Shown here: positions 4,823 to 10,099 of the stretch, one piece after another
How the letters are laid out: every line of letters starts with the position of its first letter
How positions within the stretch are numbered: the first letter of the stretch is position 1
From: a virus
Lineage: Duplodnaviria > Heunggongvirae > Uroviricota > Caudoviricetes
Length of the DNA: 11,546 bases
Strand: one strand, 5' to 3'
IMG/VR virus record: IMGVR_UViG_2703718868_000005
Notes under the pieces: generated by a model
Database searches by the model: none
What the model saw: only the letters and a program-made list of their open reading frames with translations
What the model was told of the DNA's origin: nothing
Program-made: the position numbers and the translations under genes

Positions 4823-4978
4823 TTACTCCTCAGGTTCGTAAGCTGTGAAGACAGCGACCTCCGTCTGGCCGGTTCGGATTCGTACCTCGCAGAGGTCTTT
4901 CCTCGTTACCAGTGCCGTCACTATGACGGTTAAACAGATGACAATCAGGGCGATTAACATCGCCTTTTGCTGCTTCAT
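4823..4978 (-). CDS. hokD: Hok-family type I membrane toxin (HokD/RelF-like)
   Basis: 51 aa, MKQQKAMLIALIVICLTVIVTALVTRKDLCEVRIRTGQTEVAVFTAYEPEE, matching HokD/RelF as I recall it. SD AAGGAG upstream. An in-frame upstream ATG at 5035 gives the 70-aa ORF-track frame, at the position of mok. Confidence 0.9.
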   Translation of the reverse strand: MKQQKAMLIALIVICLTVIVTALVTRKDLCEVRIRTGQTEVAVFTAYEPEE

Positions 4979-5026
4979 AGCCTGCTTCTCCTTGCCTTTC
5001 GGCACGTAAGAGGCTAACCTACATGT

Positions 5027-5095
5027 GCAAAGCATGAAATTGGCCTCAGATTAATGTTAAGCGTCCTGCAAGACGCGTAATGTTAACTGGGGCTT
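5027..5095 (+). ncRNA. Possible Sok-like antisense RNA opposite the hok leader (position approximate)
   Basis: Inferred from hok/sok locus architecture. Weak promoter-like TTGCCT-17-TAACCT at 4992-5020 and a hairpin GCGTC-CTGCAA-GACGC at 5061-5076 on the plus strand. Exact ends not determinable from sequence alone. Confidence 0.2.
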
Positions 5096-5249
5096 TTCTC
5101 TGTCTGCCTTACGGCGGCATGCCCGAGGCAGACAGCCTCAAGCACCCGCAGCAATTCTACTTAACTCTTCTTTCCCCGCAAATCATTTTATCCCCGATGG
5201 TAATGTTCTCCCGATATGGGAATTCCCATATCAAGGTTAACTCAATCGG

Positions 5250-5801: not shown

Positions 5802-5962
5802 GATAACGCCCTCTGGTTGATGAATTTAACTATCACCACCTTCAGGTCTCAATCATCAGGTGGCGAGACGTACAGGGTTGAGACTACCGGATCAACCAAC
5901 CGGCCAGCCTTTCGGCTGCCCCATACGCCTCACCATAATTCAGATGTGCGTGCGCATACGAC

Positions 5963-5987
5963 AATAAAAAACACGCTCGCGGCGTGT
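5963..5987 (-). terminator. Rho-independent terminator ending the replication-side operon
   Basis: Minus strand reads ACACGC-CGCGA-GCGTGT followed by TTTTTATT. Confidence 0.6.
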
Positions 5988-6072
5988 GTCTGTCGCGGTT
6001 GAATATCCGGGGTCTCAATCCCGACGGTCAACTCGACCGTGCGGTGAATATAGCCCCGGATTAGTAATTACG

Positions 6073-7188: not shown

Positions 7189-7929
7189 TCAGTTCCTGTG
7201 CTGGCTGACGTTCGGACGCCAGCTCTCCCAGTTAAACGTCACCCAGCGACCACCGTTCATGGACATGCGGTCCATTACCCGCTCGCCGAGAAGTGTATTC
7301 ATCGCTGCATGATTAAGATTTGTCAGCATCCCCACACTGAGTAACGATGCCGTTCTGCGGTCAACAATCTGATTAAGCGTGACCTGCTCATTACGCGTAT
7401 CCCGTTGCATGCCAATTTCATCCAGTACCAGCAGGTCAACGCCACACAATCCCTGCAAAAATTTTTCGCCCGAGTTTTTGTTGTCGTAGCTGCCATGTAA
7501 CGCCAGCATCACATCCGCCACTGTTATCACAATCACACTGCGACCTTTCGCCAGAAGGTGGTTGCCAATAGCCGCCGCCAGGTGGTTTTTTCCTGTGCCA
7601 GGCCGGCCACTGAACACAAAATTCGTACAGCCGCCTTCCAGCTCTGCCGCAATGGATTTCGCCTGACTCAGGGCATGGCGCTGACCATCGTTCTGCACCC
7701 GGTAGTTACCGAACGTACACTTCCGGTGAAGCGGCTGGATACCGGAGCGGTTAATGATTTTTTCAACCCGCGTCTGATGATTCAGACGATTAACCTCCTC
7801 GCTTCGCTTACGCCCTTCAGCAAGCTGCCATTCCCGCCACTCCGTCACCGTACGGTACGGAGGGATTGCATCCTGCGGCACAAATCTGCTGACTCTTGCC
7901 AGAACACCACCTGACGTAATGTTTTTCAT
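7189..7929 (-). CDS. DnaC-like replicative helicase loader (IstB-like AAA+ ATPase; lambda P functional analogue)
   Basis: Walker [18 protein letters not shown] and Walker B LLVLDEIG. Start lies 6 nt after the stop of the initiator gene. Confidence 0.92.
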
Positions 7930-7935
7930 GATGCG

Positions 7936-8943
7936 CTACCCCCTGAAACCCGGCGGAATTTCGGTATCCGGTTCAGAAATATGATTCACGCAACGCTGCG
8001 CGGGACCACGCCACAGTCGAATAACCAGTTCATCCCATTTCTCACGGAGTTTTTCCGGGCTCTTGATGTTTTTTATCCAGAACGGATCCCGTTGTGCCCG
8101 GCTGAACATTTCGCAAATTTGTCTGTGACTTCTTCCATCCAGCATCCGCATTGTGCGCACGTCATTGGCCCACGCCGTCCAGTTGGGCTCTTTCGGTCGC
8201 GTGATCTCACCATCGTCACTGGCAGCCTGTTCGTACAGGTTTACAACCCGCCCCCAGATCCACTGCGCACATGTCAAATCCTCCCGGGTTCCCCACTGGC
8301 GTTTTTTCACGCTGAACACAACAGCATCAGGATGGCGGGTTAAAAACGCCTGTTCAGCCGTCAACTCGTCCGGTTGCGAAGCGTCCGGACAAGAGAGTTT
8401 TTTATTCTCTGTTGTATTCTCTGTTGTATTCTCTGTAGGATCATCGGGCCATTTTGACCTGATGACATTGGGCCGTTTTGAACCAATGGAACGTTTCATT
8501 TTGACCTCTTCCATCGTGTCATTTTGACCTGATGGAGTGGCGCATTTTGACCCGATGGATTCGTTCACTTTGCCATCATCTAAAAGCGCGCTATCGTAGT
8601 TAATTGTGTAAAAATTAGTCATATCACGCTTCGATTTATTGAGCTTTTCGCTACGCAAAAGCCCCAGCGCTTTCAGACTTGCAAACGCACGCTTTAACGT
8701 TGACTCTGACCAGAACGGAAACTGTTCCAGCCATTGTTCCGTTGTGTTGTAAATCCAGCGAACGCCATCACATTCCATGCCGGAACTGGTATCCCTCAAC
8801 CAGTAATGCAGTTGCTGCAACACAATGGCTTCGTTTAAACCAATCTTCATCGCCAGCTGTGTGTTTATAACCAGCGGGCGTTCAGCAAAAAGAAGGCTCA
8901 TAATTCCATCCGGCTTTTTGTTGGTACTGGTGACGATAGGCAC
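7936..8943 (-). CDS. Phage replication initiator (O-like), with origin iterons inside the coding sequence
   Basis: 335-aa frame; start is GTG at 8943 or ATG at 8901. N-terminal domain resembles phage replisome-organiser proteins. Iteron array and AT-rich stretch lie within the gene. Followed by the DnaC-like gene. Confidence 0.85.
   Translation of the reverse strand: MPIVTSTNKKPDGIMSLLFAERPLVINTQLAMKIGLNEAIVLQQLHYWLRDTSSGMECDGVRWIYNTTEQWLEQFPFWSESTLKRAFASLKALGLLRSEKLNKSKRDMTNFYTINYDSALLDDGKVNESIGSKCATPSGQNDTMEEVKMKRSIGSKRPNVIRSKWPDDPTENTTENTTENKKLSCPDASQPDELTAEQAFLTRHPDAVVFSVKKRQWGTREDLTCAQWIWGRVVNLYEQAASDDGEITRPKEPNWTAWANDVRTMRMLDGRSHRQICEMFSRAQRDPFWIKNIKSPEKLREKWDELVIRLWRGPAQRCVNHISEPDTEIPPGFRG
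8403..8436. repeat. Tandem 12-bp repeat TATTCTCTGTTG, about 2.8 copies, in-frame within the initiator gene (encodes TENTTENTTEN)
   Basis: Direct repeats at 8403-8414 and 8415-8426, with a partial third copy at 8427-8436. Confidence 0.8.
8450..8580. repeat. Iteron array (candidate prophage ori): five to six copies of CATTTTGACCYGATGG-like repeats
   Basis: Copies near 8450, 8474 (degenerate), 8497, 8520, 8543 and 8567 (degenerate), spaced about 23 bp, followed by an AT-richer stretch at 8581-8640. Arrangement resembles ori-lambda inside O. Confidence 0.6.
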
Positions 8944-9403
8944 GCTTGAAAGCGATTGCTTTTTCTATAAGCTCGTCTGTCTCACGTTCCACAACAGCTG
9001 GATCTGCAAAAAGCAGCCTGGACTCCACCACATCGCCATATTCTTTGTTTAACCCGGCAATCATGTACGTAATGCTTTTTCCGTCAGTAATTTCGCGGTA
9101 CAACCTGAAATCACTAATCCGGATAGCCTCCATAATTGCCGGAATCAGCGCCGTGAATTTTTCACGCTTATCCCTGGTGTCGATAGCCTTCCAGCGTTCG
9201 AATATCTTCACCCGGTTAACGCCAAGCGCACGCTGATCAACCCCGCCATCATCAAGCGTGACACGCTGAACATCGATGTTCGGGCGTTCCTGTAGAGCCC
9301 AGAAGGCTTCAGTAATTAATATCGTCGCCTGCTCCTGCGTCATTCCTGGTCGGCTTATCCAGGCATCCAGGGCATCGCGTGCCTGCTCAAGGGTGATTTT
9401 CAT
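8882..9403 (-). CDS. YdaT-like protein (cII-position regulator of Rac-type immunity regions)
   Basis: 173 aa. ATG at 9401-9403 overlaps the end of the Cro-like gene. Family assignment rests on position and loose motif resemblance (ALIPAIMEAI). Confidence 0.65.
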   Translation of the reverse strand: MKITLEQARDALDAWISRPGMTQEQATILITEAFWALQERPNIDVQRVTLDDGGVDQRALGVNRVKIFERWKAIDTRDKREKFTALIPAIMEAIRISDFRLYREITDGKSITYMIAGLNKEYGDVVESRLLFADPAVVERETDELIEKAIAFKRAYRHQYQQKAGWNYEPSFC

Positions 9404-9614
9404 TGTTCAACCGCCCCGCCCGCTTCGTCTTACGATATTCGTCATAAACTTTGGGGTCATACTGAAGCTCCCCGCCGGATGCCTCTTGCAGGCGCATCGC
9501 GCGACCTTCAGGGACCAGTTTCCCCCATTGAGAAACAGCAGATGGATCAACACCAGCAGCTTTCGCTACTTTGGCTTTCGTCCCATAAAAATTAATTACG
9601 TCTGATTTAAACAT
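9387..9614 (-). CDS. Cro/YdaS-like HTH transcriptional regulator
   Basis: 75 codons from ATG 9612-9614 with SD GGAGGGG upstream. HTH FYGTKAKVAKAAGVDPSAVSQWGK. Divergent from the repressor gene. ORF-track frame starts at TTG 9641. Confidence 0.75.
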   Translation of the reverse strand: MFKSDVINFYGTKAKVAKAAGVDPSAVSQWGKLVPEGRAMRLQEASGGELQYDPKVYDEYRKTKRAGRLNNENHP

Positions 9615-9691
9615 CACCCCTCCAGGCTTGAGTTTTCTCAAAAGTAATCACCCAAGGAATCTCAAGCCAAGGGTTATTAAGATATCTAAAT
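9615..9691. promoter_or_regulatory. Divergent promoter/operator region of the immunity switch
   Basis: 77-bp intergenic region with inverted repeats TTGAG-TTTT-CTCAA (9628-9641) and GGCTTGAG (9626-9633) / CTCAAGCC (9661-9668). Confidence 0.5.
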
Positions 9692-10099
9692 ATGAACGAG
9701 AAAACTTTAGGTCAACGAATTAGAGAAAGACGCAAACAGGTTGGTTTAAGTCAAAACGATTTAAGCAAAGCTGCTGGTGTATCTGGCTCATCAATTTCAC
9801 TATGGGAAAGCGACCATACAGCCCCGCGCGGGCAAAATTTGCATCGCCTGGCTGAGGTATTGCAATGTTCACCAACTTGGATACTGTTTGGTGACGAGGA
9901 TAAAACACCAGATCCACCAGTTGCACTCAACAGCGCCTTAGACTTATCGGAAGATGAGTCGGAGATGTTGCGATTGTATCGCGCACTTCCAAAATCAGAG
10001 CAGCAAGCACAGATCAGCGAACTCCGTGCCCGCGTTGAGAATTTTAATCGCCTATTCACCGAGCTACTAGAAGCTCGCAAACGTAACAAACATCAATAA
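9692..10099 (+). CDS. dicA: DicA-like prophage repressor (XRE-family HTH)
   Basis: 135 aa. HTH QNDLSKAAGVSGSSISLWE. Segments LQCSPTWILFGDEDK and RARVENFNRLFTELLEARKRN resemble E. coli DicA as I recall it. Confidence 0.85.
   Translation: MNEKTLGQRIRERRKQVGLSQNDLSKAAGVSGSSISLWESDHTAPRGQNLHRLAEVLQCSPTWILFGDEDKTPDPPVALNSALDLSEDESEMLRLYRALPKSEQQAQISELRARVENFNRLFTELLEARKRNKHQ

Follow-up and report, generated by a model that had tools for sequence, protein, structure and literature searches.

The stretch analyzed here is an 11,546-nucleotide piece of tailed-phage DNA (IMG/VR record IMGVR_UViG_2703718868_000005; hereafter the window, with positions counted from its first letter). Our analysis points to its positions 8369–8580, which lie inside an O-like replication initiator gene (7936–8901, minus strand), as a lambda-style replication origin of a lambdoid Escherichia coli prophage. 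Within this region, a tandem array of 12-bp units (8400–8436) would represent the unwinding or helicase-loading element. We put the probability of this reading, taken as a whole, at about 0.7. The presence of an origin within the initiator gene is in itself textbook knowledge for lambda and is known for RepA_N plasmids (PMC5703833). What is new here is the set of modules assembled around the origin, namely a non-lambda winged-helix domain, a lambda-type C-terminal domain, a DnaT-like tail and a DnaC-like helicase loader.

Phased iterons and the 12-mer array

An earlier note on this DNA had proposed that the O-like initiator gene contains an iteron-type origin, comparable to ori-lambda, with five to six repeats spaced by about 23 bp. 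The repeats proved to be where the note had put them and to comprise four exact cores, one variant and one relic. The core CATTTTGACC occurs exactly four times in the window, always on the plus strand (at 8450, 8497, 8520 and 8543), whereas dinucleotide shuffles give an expectation of 0.06 and none of the 200 shuffles reached four. The fifth core, CGTTTTGAAC at 8474, is changed at two positions, and the sixth copy, TCACTTTGCC (8566–8575), is degenerate and sits in the next 23-bp register. A repeat search of the plus strand returned five 23-nt direct copies across 8442–8557, starting at 8442, 8466, 8489, 8512 and 8535 (spacing of 24, 23, 23 and 23). Over lags of 8 to 40, the lag-23 self-identity of 0.55–0.62 across the iterons is the strongest periodicity of the window, for which self-identity has a mean of 0.26 and a standard deviation of 0.055 and reaches 0.5 nowhere else.

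Read in the orientation of the gene, iterons 2–6 (8442–8557, minus strand) are five 23-bp units with the core GGTCAAAATG and partial dyad symmetry, centered at gene nt 356, 379, 402, 425 and 449; in iterons 3 and 6, nine of the 12 arm positions are paired. Iteron 1 (8558–8580, minus strand; core GGCAAAGTGA) is degenerate in the window and in register with the others, and the homologues from Citrobacter and Enterobacter have a good iteron (GAGGTCAAAGTGACC) in its place. The initiator gene thus harbors five good dyad-symmetric iterons and one relic at a spacing of about two helical turns.

Since the 23-nt period is not a multiple of three, the peptides encoded by the individual iterons differ. 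Among 52 distinct alleles of 966 nt, third-position diversity amounts to 0.025 for the iterons and 0.0225 for the 12-mers, compared with 0.12 in the region encoding the N-terminal domain, 0.125 in the AT-rich stretch located 5′ of the iterons and 0.18 in the region encoding the C-terminal domain; synonymous-site diversity in the origin elements is about five-fold below that in the rest of the gene. Diversity at first and second positions, on the other hand, is higher in the iterons (0.037) than in the N-terminal domain (0.011). The abolition, within the iterons, of the pattern in which third positions vary more than first and second ones indicates that a DNA-level constraint has replaced the coding signature.

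The earlier note had named the absence of the repeats from homologous initiator genes as an outcome that would speak against an origin. We found the opposite. In a scan of relatives restricted to one genome per species (80 loci), a 9-mer finder detected repeats spaced by 22–24 bp at gene nt ~320–460 in most loci, that is, at the same position of the gene as in the window. Homologues with phased repeats come from Enterobacterales, Pseudomonas, Photobacterium, Acinetobacter, Lactobacillales, Staphylococcus, Clostridia and other groups, and this retention supports the proposed ori-lambda layout. The cores themselves differ by lineage (GGTCAAAATGACC, GGGCAAATTGCCC, GGACAATTTGTCC, CATGTGATC, GATCCAACG, TGGACAAAATGACC and others). 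Several of them are clear palindromes, which fits binding by a dimer. One natural allele (protein P0025; 1380–2252 of locus L289) has exactly 93 nt deleted in frame between iteron 2 and iteron 6. What remains is a hybrid iteron together with the relic one, and the 12-mer array is intact. This deletion resembles the in-frame ori-minus deletions of lambda, and the allele may represent the inactivated origin of a cryptic prophage.

The 12-mer array (in gene orientation ACAGAGAATACA ACAGAGAATACA ACAGAGAATAAAA; 8400–8436, minus strand), our candidate for the unwinding or helicase-loading element, begins at a distance of 18 nt from the center of the last iteron. Tandem Repeats Finder reports it as TATTCTCTGTTG repeated 2.8 times at 8403–8436, 100% perfect (score 68), in frame on the minus strand and encoding TENTTENTTEN, just as had been described. 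The accompanying suggestion, that the repeat encodes a linker which could vary in length by slippage, holds in part. Copy number does vary among relatives, from two to five units (a 98%-identical gene, L010, has 4.8 copies, and protein P0100 has one extra TENT), but the synonymous sites are fixed, contrary to what a merely slippage-prone linker would imply. The array is in fact the most strongly DNA-constrained part of the origin region. Its consensus is (A)CAGAGAWTACW (unit ACAGAGAWTACW), with C2, G4, G6, T9, A10 and C11 invariant.

This constraint is most evident in codon usage. In 38 species-level loci picked by the peptide pattern alone, Glu inside the array is encoded by GAG in 105 of 105 cases versus 48% outside it (p 2e-30), and Thr by ACA or ACT in 230 of 231 cases versus 41% outside; Asn is always AAT (42/42) and Ile always ATT (37/37). 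That GAG is invariably used over the more AT-rich GAA shows the constraint to be on sequence and not on composition alone. Moreover, in six loci, mostly from Firmicutes, a single gene reads the unit in two different frames, the spacing being first 11 nt and then 12 nt. On the grounds of codon invariance and the use of two frames, we rejected conservation of TENTTEN at the peptide level.

A pattern scan placed the array in at least 120 viral contigs. In Proteobacteria, it follows at least 14 different iteron cores (69 distinct contexts among the matches listed), and it is also present in initiators whose N-terminal domains phmmer cannot link to this one, some of them in Shiga toxin (Stx)-converting phages. 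A 23-nt periodicity lies just upstream of the array in 124 of the 147 distinct contexts, and the GC content of the array stays at ~0.33 even in loci of 59–63% GC. Variants of the array (CCAGAGACTAC, CCAGATA) follow iterons in named phages of Pseudomonas, Staphylococcus, Lactobacillus, Flavobacterium and Bacteroides.

Which side of the iterons is expected to open is indicated by the order of elements. The AT-richer stretch that the earlier note had singled out beside the iterons (8580–8640) is indeed AT-rich (GC 0.32–0.35), but in gene orientation it lies on their 5′ side. In the direction of the gene, this stretch (nt ~260–325) is followed by the iterons (328–467), the 12-mer array (466–502) and a palindrome (~511–533), while in the lambda O gene the annotated iterons (nt 349–433) are followed by the least stable, purine-rich tract (446–476) and then by the palindrome. 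The AT-rich, strand-asymmetric tract directly 3′ of the iterons is therefore the array (GC 0.26–0.33, 75–77% purine on the coding strand), which is also the second least stable segment of the gene (z 2.5). Its location 3′ of the iterons and its purine-rich coding strand make the array, and not 8580–8640, the positional equivalent of the lambda AT-rich region. The latter is strand-asymmetric and is the site of opening, with O, P and DnaB binding single-stranded DNA (PMC5043065); the minimal unwinding unit in lambda consists of the AT-rich tract and two adjoining iterons (PMC7466680). The stretch at 8580–8640 lacks purine bias and appears to be ordinary coding DNA for the wing of the N-terminal domain (KRDMTNFYTINYDSALL). 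Its third-position diversity is normal (0.125 versus 0.025 in the iterons), and the GC content of the homologous stretch tracks that of the locus (r 0.67, range 0.22–0.62). On these two properties we rejected it as the main unwinding candidate, even though it is the least stable segment.

Just beyond the array, where lambda has its ori palindrome, lies an imperfect palindrome with eight matched pairs (GTCCGGTTGC/GCGTCCGGAC; 8369–8391). A palindrome of varying sequence beyond the array is significant in 28 of 54 homologous loci. As for other signals in the region, the one weak promoter-like match (8570–8597, plus strand) is no more than shuffles give, no terminator was found, and the origin region has no match to a known RNA family, the Rfam matches being located elsewhere in the window. 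We also rejected an overlapping plus-strand open reading frame (ORF; 8153–8527) as the cause of the constraint. It is a mechanical ORF without support, and it would leave the turnover of iterons with conserved phasing unexplained.

The initiator protein and known origin systems

The gene at 7936–8901 encodes a protein of 321 residues (ATG at 8901) that matches PHROG 391, 'replication initiation O-like', with an E-value of 7.8e-91 and has no Pfam family at the default cut-off. According to the AlphaFold2 (AF2) model, the iterons, the 12-mers and the small palindrome all lie within the coding region of a low-confidence linker (residues 109–177; 8371–8577, minus strand; predicted local distance difference test score, pLDDT, ~25), which is predicted to be disordered and to separate two folded domains. 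In other words, the origin encodes the linker between the DNA-binding and the helicase-recruiting domains.

The N-terminal domain (residues 10–105; 8587–8874, minus strand; pLDDT 70–87) is modeled as a winged helix with helix/helix/beta-hairpin topology and presumably binds the iterons. Its best Foldseek matches in the PDB are complexes of the RepA N-terminal domain with iteron DNA (5kbj and 4pql), although these matches are weak (E 0.02–0.07, TMt 0.55). No similarity to the N-terminal domain of lambda O was detected with hhalign (N-domain profile, probability 0.05%) or BLASTP, which aligns residues 140–294 only. Homology to the lambda domain (Pfam Phage_rep_O) was rejected on the hhalign result and the lack of a Pfam match. 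Nor could the domain be assigned to any other Pfam family, the only winged-helix matches being sub-threshold: RepA_N and DnaD_N fall below the Pfam threshold for the initiator, and DnaD_N matches only two of 19 relatives, at E 0.04. Several relatives carry a DnaD-like label in PHROG. A helix motif near the N-terminus, A-x-[LIV]-[LF]-x-Q-[LI]-x-Y-W (NEAIVLQQLHYWL in the window initiator; 8800–8838, minus strand), also occurs in initiators that phmmer cannot link to this one. This shared motif suggests that a single large superfamily of winged-helix initiators may be associated with the 12-mer array.

The C-terminal domain (residues 183–297; 8011–8355, minus strand), helical in the AF2 model, is homologous to its lambda O counterpart (BLASTP E 7e-25, with 35% identity over residues 140–294; PHROG 391 and 277, both 'O-like'). 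It is followed by a tail (residues 299–321; 7939–8007, minus strand; QRCVNHISEPDTEIPPGFRG) that is near-identical to the C-terminal tail of E. coli DnaT. The last 23 residues, GPAQRCVNHISEPDTEIPPGFRG, closely match the tail of this replication-restart protein (E 8.5e-5 against the PDB sequences 6aep, 2ru8 and 9zbt), and the DnaT tail is the sole match of the initiator to a solved structure by sequence. DnaT hands over DnaB–DnaC during restart (PMC13220808). The phage mEp460 and the E. coli B prophage share the initiator yet have no DnaC-like gene, which suggests that the DnaT-like tail may be able to recruit the host DnaB–DnaC complex. A Klebsiella phage relative with an otherwise different C-terminal domain has retained a similar tail (DYSVPAGFRS). 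The tail probably also explains why relatives have been annotated as 'primosomal protein I'.

Directly downstream of the initiator gene lies a gene for a DnaC-like helicase loader (7189–7929, minus strand; Pfam IstB_IS21 6.6e-16 and Bac_DnaA ATPase 8e-7; PHROG 50, 'DnaC-like helicase loader', 4.4e-79). Three loci, those of mEp460, PhiR42_1 and E. coli B C2566, have an initiator gene that is 88–89% identical to that of the window and is followed by LygF or DUF977 genes and by no DnaC-like gene. Since these relatives carry the initiator without a DnaC-like gene, a phage-encoded loader seems to be dispensable in this replication module.

Set against known systems, the locus resembles ori-lambda, and the six-iteron origins of the Stx phages 933W and P27, in having the origin in the middle of the initiator gene. 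As in ori-lambda, dyad-symmetric iterons spaced by ~20–24 bp start near gene nt 330–350 and are followed by an AT-rich tract that is purine-rich on the coding strand; the palindrome beyond that tract is only weak in the window. The homology of the initiator C-terminal domain and the gene order (cI, cro, cII-like, O, loader) are further features shared with lambda. On the other hand, the N-terminal DNA-binding domain is unrelated in sequence and the iteron sequence is different. In place of the lambda AT-rich tract, which loosely resembles it (ACAAAAGA...ATTACAAAAGA...AAGAAAAGA), there is a well-defined 12-bp tandem array; the loader is a DnaC/IstB-like AAA+ protein and not lambda P, and the initiator bears a DnaT-like tail. 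Iterons that are central in the initiator gene and encode a linker are also a feature of RepA_N initiators such as pSK41 Rep and of the DnaD-like phage 'replisome organizers'. In pSK41 Rep, a winged-helix N-terminal domain binds iterons central in the rep gene, the origin-encoded linker is dispensable and the C-terminal domain is host-specific (PMC5703833). RepA N-terminal domain–DNA complexes are the best structural matches of our domain, but weak ones (E 0.02), and there is no Pfam match at threshold.

A further resemblance is to the three AT-rich 13-mers of oriC and the 13-mers of RK2 oriV, where some three AT-rich units of 12–13 bp likewise stand beside the initiator sites. For those 13-mers, exact sequence matters besides AT content (PMC5043065). 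The element described here differs in sequence (the oriC 13-mer consensus is GATCTnTTnTTTT), lies inside a coding region and is not accompanied by DnaA boxes; no DnaA-box array was seen on reading the sequence, so that the locus does not belong to the oriC type and the resemblance is functional only. Finally, in its combination of an O-type initiator with a DnaC-type loader, the module is of the same kind as those of the lambdoid prophages Sp4, Sp10 and Sp12 of E. coli O157 Sakai, of CP-933O and of phage mEp460. O157 prophages are known to carry DnaC-type lambdoid replication modules (PMC2669165), while mEp460, PhiR42_1 and the E. coli B prophage differ in that no DnaC-like gene follows the O gene. 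A search of the searchable literature returned no description of the origins of the Sp4/Sp10/Sp12, CP-933O and mEp460-type modules.

Proposed mechanism and competing explanations

On the reading we favor, dimers of the winged-helix N-terminal domain would bind the five good, partly palindromic iterons and the relic, phased at 23 bp, to form a bent nucleoprotein complex. Stress from this complex, together with early transcription through the gene, would open the adjoining array at 8400–8436, in which the 12-bp unit (A)CAGAGAWTAC(W) occurs three times. The array, and not 8580–8640, would be the unwinding or helicase-loading element, with its exact sequence mattering and not AT content alone. Host DnaB, along with the phage DnaC-like loader from the neighboring downstream gene, would then be recruited through the lambda-O-like C-terminal domain and the DnaT-like tail.

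Several observations weigh against this reading or limit the numbers behind it. Vibrio phage SSP002 has no obvious array, and 33 of the 80 species-level homologue loci have none by the criterion used. The compared sequences are related by descent and recombination, so that the counts are not independent events. The 12-mer logo and the GC content of the array are partly fixed by the detection pattern, a bias that the codon test in the 38 loci and the two-frame test were designed to avoid. The palindrome of the window is weak, with eight pairs also reached by six of the 200 shuffles and a fold z of −1.55 relative to them. By nearest-neighbor energy, the least stable 31-mer of the gene falls in 8580–8640 (z 3.0), ahead of the array (z 2.5). 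Lastly, the prophage may be defective, in which case its origin may not be in use in this strain.

We considered whether the division of labor could be that of the earlier note, with the iterons as the origin, 8580–8640 as the unwinding element and the 12-mer as nothing but a flexible linker drifting by slippage. The low stability and high AT content of 8580–8640, each the most extreme in the gene, and the variable 12-mer copy number (4.8 copies in L010, the extra TENT in P0100, a range of 2–5) would be in keeping with it. Yet that stretch lies on the side opposite to the lambda AT-rich region, encodes the conserved wing of the N-terminal domain, shows normal synonymous diversity and is GC-rich in homologues from GC-rich genomes, and a pure linker would not be expected to have fixed synonymous sites, GAG but never GAA, and use in two frames. 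We regard this version as quite improbable. Still more improbable is that the repeats play no part in DNA replication today and represent just repetitive protein-coding sequence or what is left of a dead origin. Many E. coli prophages are defective, and natural alleles with four iterons deleted in frame do exist (P0025 in L289), but a 23-nt period gives non-repeating peptides, the constraint acts at the DNA level, the architecture is kept while the sequences turn over, and the replication genes of the window are all intact.

The location of the array raises a different possibility, namely that it is conserved as a joint at which homologous recombination swaps an 'N-domain plus iterons' module against a 'C-domain plus loader' module, and that it has no direct part in initiation. 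The array does coincide exactly with the border between the exchanged modules. The window has its N-terminal domain, iterons and array in common with Klebsiella phage ST147-VIM1phi7.2 and many viral contigs whose C-terminal domains are unrelated, and Megablast identity to Klebsiella phages stops near the array. Neutral joints should decay, however, whereas this motif persists, with variants, from phages of Proteobacteria to those of Firmicutes and Bacteroidota, whose proteins are 25–50% identical, and it keeps both its fixed position beside the last iteron and its tandem 11–12-nt structure. A role as a joint alone thus appears unlikely, although it is compatible with a role in the origin.

The alternative that we take most seriously, while still rating it below even odds, is that the array provides specific single- or double-stranded binding sites for a conserved protein (a second surface for DNA in this initiator superfamily, the DnaB-family helicase, its loader or primase) and is no passive melting tract. 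The invariant positions include G and C bases, GAG is always preferred to the more AT-rich GAA, and the distance to the last iteron is fixed; automated distances between palindrome centers are noisy, inter-iteron palindromes being sometimes picked, and for this distance we relied on the dominant 15–18-nt class and on the value of 18 nt in the window. The complementary strand of each unit carries CTG, the start triplet of E. coli DnaG, and the unit is as long as a primer. There is precedent for proteins that read the sequence of single strands in unwinding regions, both at the DnaD recognition element (PMC10201434) and where Rep proteins act on the AT-rich regions of plasmids (Wegrzyn 2014, as cited in PMC5043065). 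Against such sites it can be said that helicase and loader types differ among the phages sharing the array; the primase version in particular leans on the specificity of E. coli DnaG and would not transfer simply to the primases of Firmicutes.

A broader version of the same thought is possible, if rather doubtful at present. The tandem (A)CAGAGAnTAC units, with the variants CCAGAGACTAC and CCAGATA, might be a hitherto undescribed, sequence-specific origin element common to a very large class of phage and prophage origins in Proteobacteria, Firmicutes and Bacteroidota, which stays constant while iterons, initiator domains and helicase systems change. It might be read by a conserved protein surface belonging either to the helicase/primase machinery or to the winged-helix initiator superfamily; in the latter case the surface would be a second DNA-binding site, probably one for single strands. 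Were this so, the element would mark the exact placement of the first helicase or primer.

Prophage context and implications

The window is 100% identical to the prophage adjoining ompW in E. coli RM10466, where the coordinates of the RefSeq coding sequence WP_000054520.1 match the initiator gene at 7936–8901. Related copies of the prophage are present in 1783 of 5426 complete E. coli genomes (~1/3), and the O genes of phages mEp460, HannyBb and PhiR42_1 are 88–89% identical to the initiator gene over its whole length. The mechanical ORF list begins the gene at GTG 8943 and not at ATG 8901, which lies 20 nt inside the end of the upstream YdaT/cII-like gene (overlap 8882–8901). That gene (8882–9403, minus strand; Pfam YdaT_toxin 8.4e-6; PHROG 163, cII-like) contains a short 9-bp tandem repeat at 9357–9376 (ATCCAGGGC ×2.3, one indel). 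Further upstream are a cro-like gene (9387–9641, minus strand; Pfam P22_Cro 2.6e-17) and a divergent cI-like helix-turn-helix gene identified by domain search (9692–10099, plus strand). Judging by this gene order, early rightward-type transcription from the cI/cro region is predicted to run through the origin.

Elsewhere in the window, Rfam matches above the gathering score correspond to a sok antitoxin RNA, a C4 antisense RNA and an isrK Hfq-binding RNA (4973–5147, 5856–5940 and 5966–6040, all on the minus strand); the sok match adjoins hokD of the RefSeq annotation. Among the relatives of the initiator gene (L090, L093, L148, L150 and L152), contigs labeled as Bacillota, Veillonella or Collinsella metagenome-assembled genomes (MAGs) carry E. 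coli-type copies of 88–98% identity, and two identical 41.2-kb contigs labeled Nocardioides and Micromonospora carry a Staphylococcus-phage-like version. These cases are probably binning errors or contamination of the source assemblies.

The novelty of the 12-mer element is claimed only with caution, because early papers on lambdoid origins lie outside the searchable literature. Within that literature, the 12-mer DNA and peptide strings returned only unrelated primers and words, and an earlier description in the older papers is possible. Those papers reportedly noted conservation of the AT-rich region among lambdoid phages.

The lambda AT-rich region is usually treated as compositional. The equivalent tract here is a defined repeat, fixed at synonymous sites, that persists beside iterons of unrelated sequence, in hosts of high GC content and in two frames, with variants of it found across phyla. 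If our reading is true, the 12-mer would give a simple sequence tag by which phage origins could be located in genomes. It would also allow the determinants of an unwinding or helicase-loading site to be dissected cleanly, since synonymous recoding separates the function of the DNA from that of the protein, and it would explain why the initiator domain boundary is so favored for module exchange. The DnaT-like tail, in turn, suggests how relatives without a loader gene of their own may recruit the host DnaB–DnaC.

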